A stretch of DNA of 64,000 bases from Escherichia coli. Its GTDB lineage: Bacteria > Pseudomonadota > Gammaproteobacteria > Enterobacterales > Enterobacteriaceae. Where the stretch lies: assembly GCF_045037415.1 (NCBI RefSeq), contig NZ_CP173438.1. One strand, 5' to 3'. Within the stretch, counting starts at the first letter, position 1; the number at the start of each line of letters is the position of its first letter. Below are positions 13,236 to 23,527 of this stretch, one piece after another. The notes below the pieces were generated by a model that was given only the letters and a program-made list of their open reading frames with translations, had not been told where the DNA came from and ran no database searches. Position numbers and translations under genes: made by a program.

Positions 13236-15710
13236 ATGAGACAGGAATGTATACAAGCGGTCCAGCAGGCGGCGCAGCGCACGTTAACGGCGCGAGAAAT
13301 ACAGAACATTGAAGACCGCATTTATCGAAATATGCGCTCCATTGCTCGTGATGACCCGATGTCGTGGAGACAACTTTCCGAATCAGAGCGGCTATATCGT
13401 GCAGCACAATTGGCATCTGAAGAATTACAGCGAGAAGCGGCATTAAAGAAACGTCGTGTGGCCCTCACTATAGCCGCACGTCAGAGATTGGATAAATTTA
13501 TCAATAGCTATCAAGGGGCTGATGGGAAACTTGGCGCTCTTAACCGTACTATTGCTTTTAATGCAGACGGTAAATCGAATTTCCTCTCTGTTGAGTCCAG
13601 AACAAAAGCCACTCGTGATTATGCATTGAGTCAATTGCAAGAGGCATTTGAAGCAGTTGATCCTCGCTTTTTTGGCCTGTTTGAAGATGAAGCTGGCGTG
13701 CGTGACCTGGTATATGAAATGCGAGGGCAAAATACTGGCAATGCTAAAGCAAGAAAAGGTGCTAAGGCGTGGAGAGAAGTTACAGAGCTGCTGCGCCGCC
13801 GGTTTAATGATGCTGGTGGGGACATTGGCTATCTCGAAAACTGGGGGATCCCTCAACATCATTCTATGGAAAAGGTTGGGGCGGTATCAAAGGATAAGTG
13901 GGTTGGCGATGTTATAGGTAAGCTGGATCGCAAATATTATACCCGAGCCGATGGACAACTGATGAACGATGCCGAGTTGTCTGCATTTCTTGGAGAGGCT
14001 TATAACACGATAGCTACTGGTGGGCTGAATAAGCTTACTGATACCGGAATGCGAATTTCCGGCGCACGTGCTAACCGTGGTAATGCATCACGACAGATAC
14101 ATTTCAAAAATGCAGATTCCTATCTCCAATATCAACAACTTTATGGTGATCGCTCTCTATGGGAAATCATGGTCGGTCACCTGGAAGGTATCAGTAAAGA
14201 TATTGCTCTGGTGGAAACATATGGTCCAAACCCCGATCATGTTTTCCGCTCCCTTCTTGATCAGGTGAAGGCAGAAACGGCAACAGCTAACCCGAGTAAA
14301 ACCGGTAAAGTCGAGCGGCTGGCGAACAACACAGAGAATCTGTACAACTTTATTTCCGGAAAGACACAGCCTGTAGCGAATCCGCACATCGCGCGATGGT
14401 CTGACAATATCCGCAACTGGCTGGTTGCCAGCAGACTCGGATCCGCGTTGCTGTCATCGTTCTCTGATCTTGGAACCATGTATCTGTCTGCGAAGGTTAC
14501 CAACCTTCCAATGAACCAGTTATTCCGCAACCAGCTTGAAGCTATGGACCCAACGAACCGTACAGAACTTGCGCGGGCGCGCCGCGCTGGTCTGGCGATG
14601 GAATCTCTACTTGGCAGCGTTAACCGCTGGGCGATGGATAATATGGGGCCGTCTGTGTCTCGTTGGGCTGCAACGGCGGTAATGCGTGCCAGTGGGCTTA
14701 CAGCATGGTCAGATGCGCACAAGCGCGCCTATGGCGTAACCATGATGGGAAGCCTGGGAGAAGTAGTGTCACGGACACCAGACCTTCGTAGCCTCGATGA
14801 TTCTGATTTTCGTATCCTGAAAAGCAAAGGGATTACTGACACAGACTGGAGCGTATGGAAGCTGGCGCAACAGGAGGACTGGGGGAACGGCAATAATACG
14901 ATGCTGACACCGGAAAGCATTATGCGTATCCCTGATTCAGCAGTTAAACATCTTGGTGAGCCTGAACGCGTGAAATTTGAGGCAATGCGTAAACTGCTCG
15001 GTGCCGTAACTGAAGAAGTTGATATGGCTGTTATTACACCGGGAGCACGTGAGCAACTGATAACCGGTTCTGGTATTCAGCGTGGAACATGGAAAGGTGA
15101 ATTAACGAGAAGTGTTTTCCTGTTTAAATCGTTCCCTATCTCGGTGGTTATGCGTCACTGGTCACGCGCTATGGGTATGCCGTCTGCTGGTGGGCGTGCG
15201 GCATATATTGCGACGTTTATTGCCAGTACGACCATTCTTGGCGCTTTGTCGCAGCAACTTAACGACCTTGCGTCTGGTCGTAATCCTCGCGAGATGACAG
15301 GAGAAGATGCTGCTAAATTTTGGCTTGGTGCTCTACTGAAAGGTGGTGGTCTTGGCCTTTACGGTGACTTTTTATTGTCAGATCACACTAGGTACGGAAG
15401 CGGCGCGCTGGCGTCGATGCTTGGCCCGGTAGCTGGTCTGGTTGATGACGTAGTGAAGATTGCTCAGGGCATACCGTTAAATGCTGTGGAAGGGAAGAGT
15501 GAGCAGACTGGTGGTGATCTGGTGAAGCTGGGGAAAGGTTTGATGCCTGGTGCGAATCTCTGGTACTTGAAGGCGGCTCTCGATCACATGATCTTTAACC
15601 AGATGCAGGAGTATTTTTCACCAGGCTATTTGCGTAAAATGGAGCAACGTTCGAAGAAAGAGTTTAACCAGACATACTGGTGGCGACCACAGGATGTCAC
15701 TCCGCAATAA
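13236..15710 (+). CDS. Large internal virion (core/ejection) protein, 824 aa
   Basis: Third large protein of the internal-protein block. Confidence 0.6.
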   Translation: MRQECIQAVQQAAQRTLTAREIQNIEDRIYRNMRSIARDDPMSWRQLSESERLYRAAQLASEELQREAALKKRRVALTIAARQRLDKFINSYQGADGKLGALNRTIAFNADGKSNFLSVESRTKATRDYALSQLQEAFEAVDPRFFGLFEDEAGVRDLVYEMRGQNTGNAKARKGAKAWREVTELLRRRFNDAGGDIGYLENWGIPQHHSMEKVGAVSKDKWVGDVIGKLDRKYYTRADGQLMNDAELSAFLGEAYNTIATGGLNKLTDTGMRISGARANRGNASRQIHFKNADSYLQYQQLYGDRSLWEIMVGHLEGISKDIALVETYGPNPDHVFRSLLDQVKAETATANPSKTGKVERLANNTENLYNFISGKTQPVANPHIARWSDNIRNWLVASRLGSALLSSFSDLGTMYLSAKVTNLPMNQLFRNQLEAMDPTNRTELARARRAGLAMESLLGSVNRWAMDNMGPSVSRWAATAVMRASGLTAWSDAHKRAYGVTMMGSLGEVVSRTPDLRSLDDSDFRILKSKGITDTDWSVWKLAQQEDWGNGNNTMLTPESIMRIPDSAVKHLGEPERVKFEAMRKLLGAVTEEVDMAVITPGAREQLITGSGIQRGTWKGELTRSVFLFKSFPISVVMRHWSRAMGMPSAGGRAAYIATFIASTTILGALSQQLNDLASGRNPREMTGEDAAKFWLGALLKGGGLGLYGDFLLSDHTRYGSGALASMLGPVAGLVDDVVKIAQGIPLNAVEGKSEQTGGDLVKLGKGLMPGANLWYLKAALDHMIFNQMQEYFSPGYLRKMEQRSKKEFNQTYWWRPQDVTPQ

Positions 15711-15721
15711 AAGGAGATATG

Positions 15722-15844
15722 ATGGTTCAAATAACTTTTATTGTACTAATATGTGCAGCGTTTTTATGCTATTCATACATTTTGATAAAAATGGGTTTCA
15801 ATTGGAATCTCTGTTGCGTGCAGCGGCATGGTTCGGCTTTGTAG
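15722..15844 (+). CDS. Possible small hydrophobic protein (40 aa) in AT-rich moron
   Basis: AAGGAG RBS at 15711-15716 with 5-nt spacer to ATG; hydrophobic product; a competing 62-aa ORF (15694-15882) uses another frame. Confidence 0.3.
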   Translation: MVQITFIVLICAAFLCYSYILIKMGFNWNLCCVQRHGSAL

Positions 15845-17380: not shown

Positions 17381-18037
17381 TCAGAAGAACCCTGCCTTGT
17401 CGTTGATGTACTCCGCGTGCGTCTGGATATCACGCAGGCATTTGCTCACACCAACGATGTAGCAGAACATGGTGGTCAGCTCCGCCGCCGCGCCCGATAC
17501 GTCGTGCCCGTCGTCCTGTAACTGGTTCAGCAGATTCATCAGCAGTGAGTTCTCCGTCAGGCCGAGAACACCAGACGGCGAGTGAATCAGGCTGCGGTAG
17601 CCGGGCTTCAGTGGGGCACTGTATTCTTTTTTGTCTTCCAGCTTGATCGCCTCCATAATGGCGGGCATGAAGCCTGACAAGACCTTCTCCACTTTTGTTT
17701 CTTGTTGTCTTAAACGTTTCTCGCATTCAATGAAGTAGCGTCGCACCTGGCGACCTTTTTCGTTACGCTCGACCATCGCCAGCTCTTTGGCTGTATCAAG
17801 GGTGAGGTGGTACTCTTTGCGGTTGTGGCCGCCTCTACCAGATGTTTGCTTTCCCAAATTGGAAAGCAAAATATAGTCTTGATTTTCAATGAATTCGTAT
17901 TCTGATATGCGATTTGTAATCCATGCTGCAAACACCTTTTTAACACCTAAAAAAGCGTGCAGATCGCGGGCATTACAAAGTAGGGCTGTTTCGTTAGATA
18001 TAGTGCCGTTGAATACGGGGATGAGTTGAGCGTTCAT
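17381..18037 (-). CDS. Antirepressor-like protein: AntA-type N-terminal domain plus C-terminal domain paralogous to the small SOS-controlled protein
   Basis: GGAG RBS; N-terminal motif [27 protein letters not shown] typical of AntA/AntB antirepressor domains; C-terminal 70 aa about 40% identical to the 18357-18614 product. Confidence 0.65.
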
Positions 18038-18196
18038 GATGGCGTCTCCACTTAGCGAATTACATCACCACCGCTGAGAACCAATCAGATGGTGGTGAAC
18101 TGAACGGAGTTGGTCTTACCGGCCTAAGTGGTACCGGCGTCCTTTCGGACCCCCATTCAGCCCACCATAATTCTGGCATGACTGTGCTATACGCAT

Positions 18197-18218
18197 AAAA
18201 AAACCACGTCTGGCGTGG
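18197..18218 (-). terminator. Putative rho-independent terminator between the small SOS-controlled gene and the antirepressor gene
   Basis: CCACG-N5-CGTGG hairpin followed by seven U on the minus strand; short stem. Confidence 0.4.
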
Positions 18219-18308
18219 TATGCGCCACTTAGTAATCCGGGAGAACCAATCCCGGCACTGGATTTTGCCAGTGCCCGATTACTATGGCACAAGAGGAGTG
18301 CGATGTAA

Positions 18309-18327
18309 ATTTACCGCAAAGGTAAAT
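18309..18327. promoter_or_regulatory. Operator-like palindrome ATTTACC-N5-GGTAAAT (copy 2)
   Basis: 7-bp inverted repeat with 5-bp spacer, same core as copies 1 and 3. Confidence 0.45.
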
Positions 18328-18356
18328 ATAAGCACTCCATTTGGTAATTTCAAACC

Positions 18357-18809: not shown

Positions 18810-21461
18810 ATGACGGTTTCAACCGAAGTTGACCACAACGAATACACCGGTAACGGAGCTACGACATCATTTCCGTATACCTTCCGTATTTTCAAAAAAT
18901 CCGACCTGGTTGTTCAGGTGTCTGACCTGAACGGGAACGTAACAGAATTGGTTCTGGATACTGACTACACAGTAACCAATGCTGGAGGATATAATGGCGG
19001 TAATGTAATTCTGTCGAAGGCGTTGGCTAACGGTTATCATATTTCTATATCACGAGAGCTCCCGGTTACGCAGGATACTGATTTGCGTAATCAGGGTAAG
19101 TTCTTCGCTGAGGTACATGAAGACGCGTTCGATAAACTGACAATGCTTATTCAAAAGTGTTTTTCATGGATGAGGTTAGCACTTATAAAACCAAGCATTC
19201 TGGCTAACTATTATGATGCAAAAAATAATAAGATATCAAATCTAGCAAATGCCACTGACAGAAACGATGCTGTCAATAAAGGTTATGTTGATGATCTTTT
19301 TACTGGAGGTGTAACGCCTACATCTAACAGCGCTAAAAACGATATTTTTACAAATCACCAAAGAAAGATTGTAGCTACGATGCCGCTTCTTTTTCCTGAA
19401 TATGATGCGATTATGGCTGCTAACCCGTCAGCAACTTATATGTATCCTCAAGGATTCTGCGTTAGCGAAGATTTGATATACATCACTTATCCATTTGAGC
19501 CTAAACAGACGAATAATGTCGTCGCAGTATTTAACATATCTGGTATTTATCAAGGTTATTTCTATGTTCAGGCTGGCGGCCCAGGCTTCGCTGCTGAAGG
19601 AATCGTGGTTACGTCAGACTATGGCCCCAAAAAAATGTTTGTTGGTCACACAAACGGAATACTGCGTGAATTTAATATGGAGGGGGCATTATACGGAAGC
19701 AATCTGCCTCTTGTACAAAACCATGATGTTGGATTATTCAACCAGTTCAGCTACAGAAGAGGTATATGGCTCGTTGAGCAGAATGCGCCAGAAGTAGGAC
19801 AGAAAATCACAAGAACTGTACTTGCAGTGTTCGACAGTGGTTTCAATCGCCTGTCAACTATAACGCTGCCGTTACATGATGTTGGGTATGTAACTAAAAG
19901 CACCTCACCTTATGCGCCTTATTTCAACAAGCGTCAGGGTATTGCGGTAGGTGATAACTACTTTGTCTGCGGCTATGGCGGCTTCATAGCTGATGGGGCA
20001 GGAAGCGCAGGATATAACGAATATCAGGGCAGCAAAGTTTTTAACCCTGACGGTACAAAGCGAACTGAATCAATGCTTCATCCTCAGGCCATGATGGATT
20101 TAATGAAAGCCGCAGGATTGAACGTCACTCGCATAGAAAATGAAGGCGTTTGTGTTTCTCAGGATGGAAAATCCATTTATTCACTTTACATTCATCAGGA
20201 AAGAACTGGCTCTGAACCTTACAATTCAGGTTTGGTTATTTTCGAAGATTTCTCCACTGATAAAGATGCTATCGATTTTACACCTGCATCCAGGCTTTAC
20301 CGCGGATTTGATATCGATCACGCGAGCATTGGGGTATATCCCCGTAGTGCGAAGGGGATTGTTAACCCTGTAGATGGTACGTTGTTCACTAACATGACTG
20401 AAATTCTTCGCTATATGCAGGAGATGAGTCAGAAGGCATTTAATTTTTACACAGGGACTGTCAGCATTGCTGATATATCTGGCGTGGCAATCCCTTCCAG
20501 CACATATGTTGAAATACTGAATGCGAATAATCAGACTTTTATAGTCAACTATTATTCATCTGATAGTGGCATTAGTTATTTGGTTGCAACTAATCCTTCT
20601 GGTGACTTTGTATTTGTGCGCCAGCGACCGGCACAGTGGGCATCTAACTTAACCATTCAGCAAAACGCAGATCCTGATACAAACCAATTAAACCGCATCA
20701 CTGCATCATCATATGCCGGTGCAACTACAAACTCTCAGAAAATATTGGTCCTTGACCAGCAGGCTACAGCTAGCGCAAATAGCTTGGTATTGGGCGGTAG
20801 TTCTTCTGTGTTTAGGTCTGCCACCACGGTGGATATTGCATGCAACAGCGACCCGACAGCATTGGGAGGAACCATACGCTGGCGGTTTTATGATACAGGT
20901 CTTCGCCCGTTTGCTGACAATACCTATAATTTTGGTCAGGCATCGTTTCGTATTAAAGACGCCTACTTTGCAAATGCCCCAACCGTTTCATCAGATGCCA
21001 CGCTGAAAACCAATCCCGAGGCAATATCAGATTTAAGTGAAATGCTTTCTTCTGATAGAGACAGCATTCTTGATGCCTGGGGCGATATTTCTGTTGTGGC
21101 GTATCGATGGCTCGACGCTATATCCATGAAGGGCGATGGTGCCAGATGGCATTTTGGCGTCATGGCTCAGCAGGTAAGGGATGTATTCTTGGCGCACGGA
21201 ATTGATGGAACCAGATTTGGCCTTCTTTGCTATGACGAGTGGGATGATATTTTTGAGCCGGTAATCGCGACTAAAGAGATTACCGATACGTCTGGTGAGT
21301 TGGTCACCGTCGAATATGACACCGGAGAACAGAGGCTGGTTAAAAAAGCGGGTAGTTCATGGGGTATACGGCCTGACCAGTGCGCTTGGCTTGAGGCTGC
21401 ATATCAGCGCCGTCGATGCGATCGTATTGAAGAGCGACTCGAACTATTGGAATCAAAATAA
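18810..21461 (+). CDS. Tailspike protein with C-terminal intramolecular chaperone (peptidase S74-like) domain, 883 aa
   Basis: RBS CTGGAG; conserved-looking N-terminal virion-anchor region; C-terminal block (RWHFGVMAQQVRDVF...) resembles the self-cleaving chaperone domain of endosialidases and tail fibres. Confidence 0.75.
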   Translation: MTVSTEVDHNEYTGNGATTSFPYTFRIFKKSDLVVQVSDLNGNVTELVLDTDYTVTNAGGYNGGNVILSKALANGYHISISRELPVTQDTDLRNQGKFFAEVHEDAFDKLTMLIQKCFSWMRLALIKPSILANYYDAKNNKISNLANATDRNDAVNKGYVDDLFTGGVTPTSNSAKNDIFTNHQRKIVATMPLLFPEYDAIMAANPSATYMYPQGFCVSEDLIYITYPFEPKQTNNVVAVFNISGIYQGYFYVQAGGPGFAAEGIVVTSDYGPKKMFVGHTNGILREFNMEGALYGSNLPLVQNHDVGLFNQFSYRRGIWLVEQNAPEVGQKITRTVLAVFDSGFNRLSTITLPLHDVGYVTKSTSPYAPYFNKRQGIAVGDNYFVCGYGGFIADGAGSAGYNEYQGSKVFNPDGTKRTESMLHPQAMMDLMKAAGLNVTRIENEGVCVSQDGKSIYSLYIHQERTGSEPYNSGLVIFEDFSTDKDAIDFTPASRLYRGFDIDHASIGVYPRSAKGIVNPVDGTLFTNMTEILRYMQEMSQKAFNFYTGTVSIADISGVAIPSSTYVEILNANNQTFIVNYYSSDSGISYLVATNPSGDFVFVRQRPAQWASNLTIQQNADPDTNQLNRITASSYAGATTNSQKILVLDQQATASANSLVLGGSSSVFRSATTVDIACNSDPTALGGTIRWRFYDTGLRPFADNTYNFGQASFRIKDAYFANAPTVSSDATLKTNPEAISDLSEMLSSDRDSILDAWGDISVVAYRWLDAISMKGDGARWHFGVMAQQVRDVFLAHGIDGTRFGLLCYDEWDDIFEPVIATKEITDTSGELVTVEYDTGEQRLVKKAGSSWGIRPDQCAWLEAAYQRRRCDRIEERLELLESK

Positions 21462-21558
21462 GACCAAATTTAGGTAATTATTATCCGTAAATGGTTTATT
21501 GTGTATGATGGACCTCATCTTCTAAGGGGGTTTTTATGCACAATAAACGGTGGTTACC

Positions 21559-21960
21559 ATGAATGGCACGGTTACGGCGGATTCACTGAATCAAGGGTTA
21601 AGCTTGGGTGCGCTGGCCTCTGTCGTCTACGGCGTTCCGCCAGAGGTGGCTCTCGGTGCTCTGGCTGGTGCGGTAATATTTGTTACCTCTGCTGTAGAGT
21701 ATCCTGTTCGTCGTCGTGTACTCTTGTCGATACTCAGCTTTCTTTGTGGTCTTCTCTTTTACAAACCAACAACATCAATTCTTATCGGAATAGCCAGCAT
21801 GATACCTACCATCACGCAGGACTCTTTCGAGAAAGGGATTGTTTTCTCTGCTGGCGCATTCGTGTCAGCAATTGTCGCAGTGCGAATTGGTATATGGCTC
21901 TATCACCGTTCTGATAATCCACGCCAGTTAATTCCTGGGAGAAAAGGCGATGGTAACTAA
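21559..21960 (+). CDS. Membrane protein with about four TM segments (holin or antiholin candidate)
   Basis: Hydrophobic helices; immediately upstream of holin-like and endolysin genes. Confidence 0.45.
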   Translation: MNGTVTADSLNQGLSLGALASVVYGVPPEVALGALAGAVIFVTSAVEYPVRRRVLLSILSFLCGLLFYKPTTSILIGIASMIPTITQDSFEKGIVFSAGAFVSAIVAVRIGIWLYHRSDNPRQLIPGRKGDGN

Positions 21961-22258
21961 TGAGCTTGTTTTGCTTATCACCAATGCAATTATTTGTACT
22001 GGCATAGCAATTCGCGTTGTCACATTCCGGCGTAACGGCTCTCAACATCGAAGATGGGGAGGGTGGCTTGCTTATTTCCTTATTGTTGCTGCGGCCAGTA
22101 TTCCTGTTCGTGTCGCCTATGCAATCTGGTTACGTACGCCAATGGCTGTGGATTTATCTGAGGTCATTATCAACGCTGTCATGCTTGCCGCGGTTATTAA
22201 AACACGCGGTAACGTTGTTCAGATTTTCAAAACATCGAGGTCTAAACATGGAGATTAA
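21950..22258 (+). CDS. Putative holin (102 aa, about three TM segments)
   Basis: Small membrane protein with charged C-terminus directly before the endolysin. Confidence 0.55.
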
Positions 22259-22877
22259 ACAATTCCAGCGAGCTGCTGGTATTAGCGAGGCTCTGGCCGC
22301 ACGCTGGTTCTCGCATATAACTTCTGCGATGAAAGAGTTTGGTATCAGAAAACCCGAAGATCAGGCAATGTTTATTGCTCAGGTCGGGCATGAGTCTGGT
22401 GGCTTCACCAGGTTGCAGGAGAATTTCAATTACAGCGTCACCGGACTGGCTAACTTCGTTCGTGCCGGTCGTCTTACTCAGGGACAGGCTAACGCATTGG
22501 GTCGTCGTGCAGGCGAGCCACCATTGCCACCTGAGCGCCAGCGTGCGATTGCCAATCTGGTGTACAGCAAACGCATGGGGAACAATGCCTCTGGTGATGG
22601 CTGGAATTACCGTGGCCGCGGACTTATCCAGATTACCGGTTTGAATAACTATCGTGATTGCGGAAACGGCCTGAAAGTGGACCTGCTGGAGAATCCTGAA
22701 CTGTTGGCGCAGGACGAATACGCGGCTCGTAGCGCGGCGTGGTTCTTCTCCAGCAAAGGTTGCATGAAGTATACCGGCGATATTGCACGTGTAACTCTGA
22801 TTATCAATGGTGGCAGGAATGGCATCGACGACCGGCGCGTGCGGTACATCACTGCCAGTAAGGTGCTGGCGGTATGA
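22248..22877 (+). CDS. Endolysin, glycoside hydrolase family 19-like
   Basis: GAGG RBS then ATG at 22248; motif [12 protein letters not shown] and [12 protein letters not shown] typical of GH19 lysozymes; ORF track start at 22017 is an in-frame upstream extension. Confidence 0.75.
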
Positions 22878-23371
22878 TCTGGGCATTCGCAAAAGCATAC
22901 CGGAAACAGTTGGTTGTCATGGCGATGCTTGCTGTTCTGGTCATATCAGGAGTTGTTGCCTGGAATGTGCATGGCAGCCGCCAGTACGATGCCGGGTATG
23001 CTCAGGCGAAGGAAGATCAGAAACAGGCTGATGATAAGTTAAGGTCACAGCGTGAGCAGGAGAAAACACAAATTGAACGTGAAGCACAATCCCGTATCGA
23101 TGCGGCGCGTGCTGATGCTGAGTATGCTAATTCCGCTGCTGACAGCATGCGCGCCGAGCTTGACAAAACCAGGCGGCTCGCCGAACACTATACCGGATCT
23201 TTCCCCCCTGGCACGCCAGCCAGCAAGGTCATCGGTGTGCTCGCCGACATGCTTGAAGAAAGCAACCGAGTTTACAACGCAACAGCAGCTGAGGCTGAAA
23301 AGTATCGTATCGCAGGGGAATTCTGCGAGCAGCAATACGATTCACTGAAGAAGCAAAAATCGTGGCACTGA
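22874..23371 (+). CDS. Rz-like i-spanin
   Basis: ATGA overlap with endolysin; N-terminal TM segment then charged coiled-coil region. Confidence 0.65.
23100..23348 (+). CDS. Rz1-like o-spanin lipoprotein embedded in the Rz gene (+1 frame)
   Basis: Lipobox LLTAC followed by a Pro-rich sequence; fully embedded in the spanin gene; start codon uncertain. Confidence 0.5.
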   Translation: MRRVLMLSMLIPLLTACAPSLTKPGGSPNTIPDLSPLARQPARSSVCSPTCLKKATEFTTQQQLRLKSIVSQGNSASSNTIH

Positions 23372-23458
23372 TTTCCGGTGACGGTATATAAAACGGTACG
23401 GTGAAAATCAGGTTACAGAAAGTTGTTACCAGTCAATTGGTTATGCATGCCGTAAATA

Positions 23459-23501: not shown

Positions 23502-23527
23502 CCCTCTGTTACTACAGAGGGTTTTTT
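23502..23527 (+). terminator. Rho-independent terminator (guaA terminator)
   Basis: CCCTCTGT-TACT-ACAGAGGG hairpin followed by TTTTTT. Confidence 0.8.

Follow-up and report, generated by a model that had tools for sequence, protein, structure and literature searches.

An AlpB-family membrane protein is predicted in the lysis module of an epsilon15/phiV10-like Escherichia coli prophage

Two consecutive genes for small membrane proteins precede an endolysin gene in a stretch of Escherichia coli DNA (64,000 nucleotides, called the window below), and the question raised by this locus is which of the two proteins opens the inner membrane and what its neighbour contributes. A sequence-only reading had proposed a lysis cassette with two membrane proteins, a GH19 endolysin and an embedded spanin pair at 21550-23371. 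All of these elements were recovered, and the end and content of that span stand, but its start moves to 21559. The cassette is an ordinary late lysis module of an epsilon15/phiV10-like prophage and is already catalogued; as a standard prophage module, annotated in reference phages, the locus itself is of small importance. What is new is that the first membrane protein of epsilon15-like cassettes belongs, as judged by profile comparison, to the family of AlpB from Pseudomonas aeruginosa, and an E. coli/Salmonella phage system is thereby offered for dissecting an AlpB/AlpC-type pair. The features of the region, with the two membrane protein genes called A and B, are as follows.

21494..21548, plus strand: imperfect hairpin of about 21 bp, directly 5' of the gene A ribosome-binding site, conserved
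21549..21553, plus strand: Shine-Dalgarno sequence GGTGG of gene A, 5 nt before ATG 21559, read from the sequence
21559-23371, plus strand: lysis cassette of five tightly packed genes (A, B, GH19 endolysin, Rz-like and embedded Rz1-like)
21559..21960, plus strand: gene A, 133-aa integral membrane protein of the PF16931 (Phage_holin_8)/AlpB family, from profile matches
21950..22258, plus strand: gene B, 102-aa protein with three transmembrane (TM) segments, PF05449 (Phage_holin_3_7)/AlpC family, from profile matches and hydropathy
22248..22877, plus strand: soluble GH19-type endolysin (muramidase), 209 aa, from profile and PDB matches
22874..23371, plus strand: Rz-like i-spanin, 165 aa, DUF2514, with an ATGA overlap with the endolysin gene, from profile matches
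23100..23348, plus strand: Rz1-like o-spanin, 82 aa (mature lipoprotein 66 aa), wholly inside Rz in the +1 frame
23372..23458, no strand assigned: phage-derived arm from the Rz stop to the prophage/host junction (attR side), from junction mapping
23502..23527, no strand assigned: host stem-loop CCCTCTGT-TACT-ACAGAGGG followed by T6, A-rich on the other side, read from the sequence

The host prophage is very probably of the epsilon15/phiV10 kind (Uetakevirus-type), intact-looking, inserted at the 3' end of guaA and equipped with canonical three-step lysis. Prophage-free E. coli genomes align to the window only from about 23459 on, the aligned part covering the guaA 3' end, and structural prophage genes were found upstream of the cassette. 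The five-gene cassettes of the phages epsilon15, phiV10 and SPN1S (Uetakevirus) agree with this one in gene content, order and overlaps: a gp23-type membrane protein comes first, then a PF05449 holin, a GH19 endolysin, Rz and the Rz1 embedded in it. A putative RNase III hairpin likewise lies upstream, and attP/int come after the cassette in the phage map; the epsilon15 record places integrase/IHF sites and the int gene after Rz. Co-linear cassettes with 77-93% DNA identity occur in epsilon15, phiV10, TL-2011b, Tyrion, PAT1 and others, and the SPN1S cassette is also co-linear. Identities to the epsilon15/phiV10/SPN1S proteins are 83-85% for A, 80-82% for B and 83-95% for the endolysin, whereas the Rz/Rz1 allele differs from that of epsilon15/phiV10 (about 50% and 34% identity, respectively) and is common to Tyrion-like and other prophages. 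The O-antigen-modifying genes located between the tail fibre and lysis genes of epsilon15/phiV10 are absent here. Reference phage records label the cassette genes membrane protein, holin, endolysin, Rz and Rz1, while PGAP labels in E. coli read putative holin, phage holin family protein, GH19 protein and DUF2514 protein. Matches of all five proteins to Pfam and PHROG profiles lie well above cut-offs and chance; NCBIfam returned no usable match for any of the five.

It is very improbable that the cassette is a decaying remnant, or that gene A serves a non-lysis function such as superinfection exclusion or transport. The position at the very edge of the prophage would suit decay, but structural genes persist upstream, and the stretch is 100% identical in 11 E. 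coli chromosomes, with all five ORFs intact. The module is present in 564 of 5426 complete E. coli genomes, about a tenth. The dN/dS values of about 0.1 for gene A (0.10-0.11) and gene B (0.10-0.13), similar to that of the endolysin, also speak against decay and reflect purifying selection. Faint sub-threshold similarities of gene A to transporters could be taken to favour a non-lysis role, yet they amount to 13-15 bits against cut-offs of 185-231, and gene A is always found inside lysis cassettes, adjoining B and endolysins.

The need for a membrane-opening protein follows from the endolysin. The GH19 assignment, as opposed to a lambda-type transglycosylase or T4-type lysozyme, was borne out by matches to PF00182 (39 bits, cut-off 25.5, E 1e-9), phrog_181 (E 9e-91), the SPN1S endolysin over its full length (PDB 4OK7, E 8e-115) and PaGH19Lys (PDB 9EOI, E 1e-32). 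The conserved residues E49/E58 align with E51/E60 of PaGH19Lys, the putative catalytic base and acid, of which E60 has been examined by lysis assay of an E60Q variant. The GHES...LQEN motif with both catalytic glutamates is identical to that of SPN1S endolysin and PaGH19Lys, and the remaining differences are scattered substitutions, with no functional difference of note. Neither a signal peptide nor a SAR domain was detected in the endolysin, no 19-residue window across the protein reaching the hydropathy threshold. Lacking a hydrophobic N-terminus, it depends on a holin; the hydrophilic N-terminus also sets this cassette apart from pinholin/SAR-endolysin systems. In the scheme that we propose, the muramidase, without an export signal of its own, would leave through holes in the inner membrane and cut the glycan strands of the wall.

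Gene A starts at ATG 21559 in PGAP and in relatives. The GTG at 21550, called mechanically as its start, was rejected, as it sits within the Shine-Dalgarno GGTGG; this in-frame codon, 9 nt 5' of the ATG, would add no charge. The surrounding motif aaacggtgg is kept in relatives. Had the first membrane protein fitted a non-lysis family, the idea of a two-membrane-protein cassette would have suffered, but its matches are to PF16931 (45.7 bits, cut-off 26.4, E 8.7e-12, residues 3-121 of 133) and to phrog_198, 'holin' (E 1e-38). A profile of the gene A family aligned with AlpB in hhalign at 99.8% (E 1.4e-29). Among 66 members the Gly/Ala-rich motif G..GA.AGA is conserved, with G25, G37 and G64 invariant and G33, A36 and A38 near-invariant. 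The protein encoded here is a divergent member, 20-30% identical to typical ones and with a 9-residue insertion, and pairwise BLAST against AlpB was non-significant, so the transfer of AlpB function holds at the family level only. A Foldseek search of the gene A model against the PDB gave nothing below E = 1.

The topology of A is less settled than its family. AlphaFold models of moderate confidence (pLDDT 67-71) contain four hydrophobic helical segments at about 5-24, 28-44, 50-79 (kinked) and 88-119, in agreement with the earlier estimate of about four TM segments, whereas the published epsilon15/phiV10 annotation gives this protein three. Helices 1-2 are weakly hydrophobic and Gly/Ala-rich, and in the wider two-protein holin reading given below they would resemble SAR-type domains able to exit the membrane.

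Gene B, which overlaps gene A by 11 nt and the start of the endolysin gene by a further 11 nt, matches PF05449 over the full model (2-80/80, 93.6 bits, cut-off 25.4, E 7.5e-27) and phrog_217 (E 4.5e-35). Hydropathy and AlphaFold place its helices at 2-24, 35-61 and 69-84; three segments and the overlap with the endolysin start had both been read correctly from the sequence. Its loop RRNGSQHRR is basic, as is the C-terminal tail, and this charge distribution fits an N-out/C-in orientation. Both genes form part of a cassette that follows the logic of lambda S-R-Rz/Rz1, namely a holin, a soluble endolysin and an Rz1 in the +1 frame inside Rz. Unlike in lambda, a dual-start holin gene (S105/S107) is lacking, gene B having a single Met start, and two distinct genes, from other families, would share the holin function; the endolysin is of the GH19 type and not a lytic transglycosylase, and the spanins are of the DUF2514, 'Bcep176' group.

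In the epsilon15 and phiV10 records gene B is annotated as 'holin' and gene A merely as a membrane protein. We consider it unlikely that this annotation, with B as the holin and A as an antiholin or accessory membrane protein, describes the division of labour correctly. Besides the statements in these records, it has in its favour the Pfam naming of B as a member of holin superfamily III and its class I-like shape, but the annotation rests on similarity alone, and A is conserved as strongly as B, as the dN/dS values indicate. The genetic lysis phenotype, moreover, belongs to AlpB, a member of the A family (PMC8131026).

The two genes are linked without exception in the loci that were sampled. 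A PF16931 gene lies directly 5' of a PF05449 gene in all eight hand-sampled distant phages (sipho-, podo-, N4-like and P2-like); B is present at 80 of 80 IMG/VR loci found via gene A, and A at 228 of 228 loci found via gene B with enough upstream DNA. The latter were retrieved with single B proteins as queries, the B-family alignment being too divergent, and the 316 related loci (8 + 80 + 228), drawn from at least five phage lineages, are phylogenetically redundant. The A/B gene overlap in relatives measures 1-14 nt. The pair precedes endolysins of four families (GH19, PF11860, GH24 and GH108), as expected of a non-specific hole-former. This linkage before varied endolysins, together with membership of the AlpB/AlpC families, assigns gene A to lysis, where it is probably the holin itself or an indispensable subunit of it; gene B is probably its holin partner or antiholin. 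One protein (P0011) in which A and B are fused was given no weight, as it is a singleton and resembles a frameshift at the gene overlap.

Second membrane or regulatory proteins beside a holin, thought to tune the timing of lysis, are also present in P2 (Y/LysA), P1 (LydA/LydB) and T4 (T/RI). Their families are unrelated to A and B, the regulator is dispensable and the linkage is not universal; in contrast to these holin/regulator pairs, neither A nor B occurred without the other in the sampled loci. Two-component holins have been reported for some Gram-positive phages, e.g., SPP1. A heteromeric holin, in which A and B are both obligatory subunits and neither makes holes alone, is a tentative possibility here. 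It would account for the absolute co-occurrence and gene order across the sampled lineages, although the redundancy of the loci weakens this argument, and the gene overlaps imply coupled translation. A tethered A-B AlphaFold model reached a pTM of 0.62, with the A core about 10 pLDDT above that of A alone, and may point to an interaction, but the artificial linker and the lack of PAE make it weak evidence.

The closest link to experiment comes from the alpBCDE self-lysis genes of P. aeruginosa, whose locus was recovered from published primers (a primer-derived 21-mer with a match in IMG/VR). AlpB belongs to PF16931 (E 3e-45) and AlpC to PF05449 (E 6e-30), and the order and overlap of their genes are as in A-B. 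Identity to the alp proteins is low: the pairwise comparison of A is non-significant, as noted above, and B shows 35% identity to AlpC over 31 residues. The alp genes are chromosomal, domesticated and controlled by AlpR/AlpA, without an adjacent endolysin or spanin; their downstream neighbours match phage tail/neck families. AlpB works with the GH19 endolysin Lys/PaGH19Lys. Joint deletion of alpB and hol abolishes lysis by Lys, either holin alone being enough, and alpB in trans complements the lysis defect (PMC8131026). The alpB deletion phenotype could partly stem from lost coupled translation of alpC. The searched literature held no experiment on A/B of epsilon15-like phages (epsilon15, phiV10 and SPN1S) or on PF16931/PF05449.

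These data favour A as the holin proper and B as an antiholin delaying its triggering, a plausible reading in which our confidence falls somewhat short of even. The lysis phenotype and trans-complementation of AlpB support the first part and the description of alpC as an anti-holin (PMC7969949) the second; profile matches confirmed that AlpB and AlpC belong to these families, and the Center for Phage Technology labels the pair of phage Seifer 'holin-antiholin'. The antiholin label of AlpC is itself putative, however, and B has textbook class I holin features, with three TMDs and a charged C-terminal tail. The linkage of A and B is also stronger than a dispensable regulator would predict. In either case, A and B would be made from overlapping genes, probably with translational coupling, collect in the inner membrane and open it at a set time, A most likely as the hole-former or an indispensable subunit and B as its partner or as a timing regulator (antiholin). 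A wider generalisation, which we offer with clear reserve, is that PF16931 and PF05449 proteins together may constitute a two-protein holin of wide distribution, with A as an overlooked hole-former or dynamic trigger subunit, B as its obligate partner and the hairpin upstream tuning the timing.

The last step of lysis is assigned to the spanins. Rz matches PF10721 (DUF2514; 76 bits, cut-off 26, E 4.6e-21) and phrog_312, 'Rz-like spanin' (E 2e-51), and consists of an N-terminal TM helix at about 12-32 (with the hydropathy peak at residues 14-32) followed by a highly charged periplasmic domain with one cysteine (C152). The lipoprotein encoded in the +1 frame had been read as an embedded Rz1, and its match to phrog_11621, 'Rz-like spanin' (E 3e-24), agrees with this. 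It retains the lipobox L-T-A-C with Cys17 and has Ala at +2, an outer-membrane sorting residue, and 7 prolines in the 66-aa mature part. An open +1 frame alone was rejected as proof, as a frame of that length is also open in 25% of codon-shuffled Rz genes; the case for Rz1 hence rests on the lipoprotein signal and on conservation. Loss of the frame in relatives would have told against Rz1, but all 71 related loci whose same-family Rz is complete carry such a lipoprotein ORF inside it, in the +1 frame, with a mature length of 66 aa in each and nearly always three cysteines (four in three loci). The motif RQP...C.PTC is conserved, though identity between the two alleles is just 33-37%. Third-position diversity of Rz falls in the overlap with Rz1, from 0.228 to 0.129 and from 0.272 to 0.115. 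The cysteines C47 and C51 of mature Rz1, within the conserved C.PTC motif, are candidates for intermolecular disulfides with C152 of Rz.

Relative to the length of Rz, the Rz1 ORF runs from 0.46 to 0.96, which is the commonest arrangement reported for embedded o-spanins (PMC6139136). Kongari et al. list epsilon15, phiV10 and SPN1S in the embedded two-component spanin family 'Bcep176' (PMC6139136), and by sequence Rz/Rz1 of the E. coli prophage is a spanin of this family with a predicted role at the outer membrane. Rz in the inner membrane and the lipoprotein Rz1 in the outer membrane would form a periplasm-spanning complex and destroy the outer membrane. In these E. coli genomes the NCBI pipeline leaves the embedded Rz1 gene unannotated.

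Expression of the cassette may be controlled after transcription. The epsilon15 record bears a protein_bind feature, 'RNaseIII' (a putative processing site), at the place equivalent to the hairpin 5' of gene A. The fold of 21455-21575 has an MFE of -36.5 kcal/mol (z -3.95), and none of 200 shuffles was equally stable. Across 60 distinct relatives 91% of the cells are paired, compared with 36-54% in slid controls; ten pairs are altered on both sides, and none of 500 shuffles attained the observed covariation score. Covariation now backs a hairpin that had only been predicted. It was scored on a hand-specified structure, as RNAalifold, run on the raw MAFFT alignment, did not recover the hairpin due to register shifts, and no Rfam family matches the region. 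Through the hairpin, RNase III probably processes the late transcript. Should the two-protein holin prove true, lysis timing would, through such an RNase III-type hairpin, also be set at the post-transcriptional level.

A consensus scan for promoters and terminators of the operon gave background-level results in which nothing stands out. Beyond the phage-derived arm, the stem-loop at 23502..23527 is absent from the list of that scan and lies in host DNA, according to the alignment of prophage-free genomes. It likely serves guaA and yfgI as a bidirectional terminator, which in the prophage state would also halt read-through from the lysis genes.

The right-hand end of the prophage (window 21462-23458) carries five gapless genes on the + strand, recovered from the ORF listing and by direct reading, together with an upstream hairpin:

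21494-21548, + strand, imperfect hairpin with 21 central pairs (flanks 21468-21565)
21559-21960, + strand, gene A, membrane protein of 133 aa
21950-22258, + strand, gene B, membrane protein of 102 aa, overlapping A by 11 nt
22248-22877, + strand, endolysin gene, 209 aa, overlapping B by 11 nt
22874-23371, + strand, Rz (i-spanin), 165 aa, joined to the endolysin gene by an ATGA overlap
23100-23348, + strand, Rz1 (o-spanin), 82 aa, entirely within Rz in its +1 frame

The sequence-only reading had proposed a lysis cassette of two membrane proteins, a GH19-type endolysin and an embedded spanin pair, with the second membrane protein running into the endolysin start; all five genes and this overlap are present, and the interpretation is correct. 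Only its starting point at 21550 has to be moved, as the GTG that a mechanical ORF call places there sits within the GGTGG ribosome-binding site (21549-21553); the true start of A is the ATG at 21559, in agreement with the PGAP call. Every family match of the five proteins lies above curated cut-offs, and an NCBIfam search of the cassette proteins added nothing.

The cassette is of a known, annotated type: its spanin family is catalogued, the structure of a close homologue of its enzyme has been solved, and a specialist in phage lysis would find nothing unexpected in it. Eleven complete E. coli chromosomes carry the 2-kb stretch at 100% identity, and it occurs in 564 of 5426 genomes. Co-linear relatives with 77-93% DNA identity include epsilon15, phiV10, TL-2011b, Tyrion, PAT1, ZX5 and other Uetakevirus-type phages, and the epsilon15 and phiV10 records annotate the same five genes (membrane protein gp23, holin, endolysin, Rz-like spanin and Rz1). 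The surrounding window holds the corresponding structural genes, among them those for portal, capsid, injection proteins and tail fibre. In E. coli without the prophage, the match to the window begins only at about 23459 and runs across the 3' end of guaA, which places the element in that 3' end, with yfgI adjoining.

The endolysin belongs to the GH19 family PF00182 (phrog_181) and aligns over its full length with 4OK7, the crystallised endolysin of SPN1S (E 8e-115), as well as with P. aeruginosa PaGH19Lys 9EOI (E 1e-32). Its E49 and E58 correspond to PaGH19Lys E51 and E60, the putative catalytic base and acid, which were probed by E60Q mutagenesis in an enzyme characterised as a muramidase (PMC12329726; see also PMC12391199). 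No hydrophobic N-terminal segment was found in the endolysin, which points to a soluble, holin-dependent enzyme and excludes the pinholin/SAR route.

Protein B (PF05449 Phage_holin_3_7, 93.6 bits; phrog_217 'holin') has three hydrophobic helices (2-24, 35-61, 69-84) with a basic first loop and C-terminal tail, which is the shape of a class I holin. AlphaFold models of protein A (PF16931 Phage_holin_8, 45.7 bits; phrog_198 'holin'), whose confidence is moderate (pLDDT 67-71), contain four hydrophobic helical segments, of which the first two are short and rich in Gly and Ala; the published annotation of its epsilon15 and phiV10 counterparts gives three TMs. Against epsilon15, phiV10 and a Tyrion-like locus, dN/dS for A and B is 0.10-0.13, and the purifying selection on both matches that on the endolysin in strength. 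The epsilon15-type A (window 21559-21957) carries a 9-residue insertion between helices 3 and 4 (PTITQDSFEKG region, residues ~80-90) that other PF16931 members lack, and its match to the Pfam model is much weaker (E 1e-11, versus 1e-24 to 1e-45 in other members).

The two membrane proteins travel together. B-like genes occur in 230 phage records (tblastn), and in all eight distant phages inspected (Hafnia yong2, Serratia Smarc1, Cronobacter ENT39118, Ralstonia RS-AB1, Salmonella TR2 of the Schitoviridae, Klebsiella Seifer of the Casjensviridae, lambdoid mEp390 and Pseudomonas D3) a PF16931 member (E 1e-17 to 1e-39) abuts or overlaps B directly upstream. In IMG/VR, B was present in 80/80 loci found via A, and an A-family ORF lay directly upstream in 228/228 loci found via three B proteins and having sufficient upstream DNA; no exception to the linkage was seen among the sampled loci, a phylogenetically redundant set. 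An apparent A-B fusion of 220 aa in a single ENA record (P0011, PF16931 + PF05449) was not counted as evidence, because its junction looks like a frameshift where the two genes of an mEp390-type pair overlap. The pair precedes four endolysin types (GH19, PF11860 muramidase, GH24 and GH108), and within epsilon15-like prophages the endolysin and spanins have been exchanged independently. Such an endolysin-independent pair behaves as would be expected of a non-specific hole-forming module. In the mosaic cassettes of relatives L013-L092 (for example L090:3678-4232 and L057:4280-4759), A and B are constant throughout, Rz/Rz1 occurs as two alleles (~50% and 35% identity), some loci have lambda-like Rz/Rz1, and in others a T4-lysozyme-like endolysin, accompanied by an additional small ORF, takes the place of GH19.

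The division of the holin role between A and B is a question for the whole widespread family rather than for this locus, and the P. aeruginosa self-lysis proteins AlpB and AlpC bear on it. The alp locus was recovered from IMG/VR by a 21-mer from the published primer PalpB+117_R, and it matches exactly a second primer of the same source and an independent primer of Hynen et al. AlpB (124 aa) belongs to PF16931 (E 3e-45) and AlpC (91 aa) to PF05449 (E 6e-30), in the same gene order as A and B, with an alpB-alpC overlap of 8 nt. The A-family profile matched AlpB with 99.8% probability; pairwise BLAST of A against AlpB was not significant. Hynen et al. showed that Lys, a GH19 endolysin, no longer causes lysis once alpB and hol are both deleted, either holin alone being enough (PMC8131026), so that in the one relative tested the holin function is carried by the first gene of the pair and not by the second only. 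Our ratings follow from this result: we tentatively put first a holin A with B as its antiholin, while the database reading, with B as holin and A as accessory, seems unlikely. An obligate heteromeric holin of A and B is conceivable, if rather doubtful; a tethered A-B AlphaFold model hints at packing (its pTM is 0.62, that of A alone 0.50, and the A core gains ~10 pLDDT points), but such a model is weak evidence. The two ORFs that follow alpC, presumably alpD and alpE (L326:10478-11519, - strand), gave matches to PF23961, a family of phage neck terminators (E 6e-15), and, weakly, to a Dit-like tail family; neither gave a spanin or endolysin match.

Rz (PF10721 DUF2514, phrog_312) has one TM helix at its N-terminus, is highly charged over the rest of its length and contains a single Cys. 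Rz1 (phrog_11621) has a 16-residue signal followed by the lipobox Cys with Ala at +2, and its mature 66 aa include seven Pro and two further Cys. An open +1 frame by itself is not significant, as 25% of codon-shuffled Rz sequences have one; for the predicted embedded Rz1 it is the conservation, rather than the open frame, that is decisive. The lipoprotein ORF proposed in the +1 frame occurs in 71/71 related loci having a complete same-family Rz, a count that omits L068, a locus with a much more divergent Rz (29% identity) in which the automated screen recovered no clean lipoprotein start. In these 71 loci mature Rz1 is always 66 aa, nearly always carrying three Cys (four in three loci) together with an RQP...C.PTC motif, even though identity between the two allelic classes is only 33-37% for Rz1 and ~50% for Rz. 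Third-position nucleotide diversity of Rz drops in the overlap (0.228 to 0.129 and 0.272 to 0.115), which fits double coding. Rz1 covers 0.46-0.96 of Rz, the commonest arrangement according to Kongari et al., who assign epsilon15, phiV10, TL-2011b and SPN1S to the embedded 'Bcep176' spanin family (PMC6139136). The embedded Rz1 has a CDS in the epsilon15 and phiV10 records but none in an identical E. coli sequence as annotated by RefSeq/PGAP (L003:4425-4922, NZ_CP023853.1, equal to window 22874-23371).

Folding of the 100-nt gap that follows the tail-fibre gene gives a long hairpin (z -3.95), for which no Rfam family was found. Its central 21 pairs are conserved in 60 distinct relatives regardless of the further-upstream content, with pairing in 91% of cells versus 36-54% in slid registers; ten pairs changed on both sides in a compensatory manner, and no shuffle reached the observed scores. 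The epsilon15 record has a predicted RNase III site at this position. As the stem runs exactly up to the ribosome-binding site of A, its processing or structure could set lysis-gene expression. In epsilon15 and phiV10 the tail fibre is separated from the lysis genes by O-antigen-modifying genes on the opposite strand (O-antigen ligase-like/polymerase inhibitor; O-acetyltransferase; L001:15-1406, L002:417-1433), whereas here the hairpin and gene A directly follow the tail-fibre gene (21462-21558).

In the host part, a strong, bidirectional-looking terminator hairpin lies at 23502-23527; the consensus terminator scan did not list it. Inside the prophage, the RefSeq annotation of the identical genome places two genes for YafO-family toxins and one for an Ant antirepressor (~15275-15787 and 17827-18333) in the interval from the injection-protein genes to the tail fibre.
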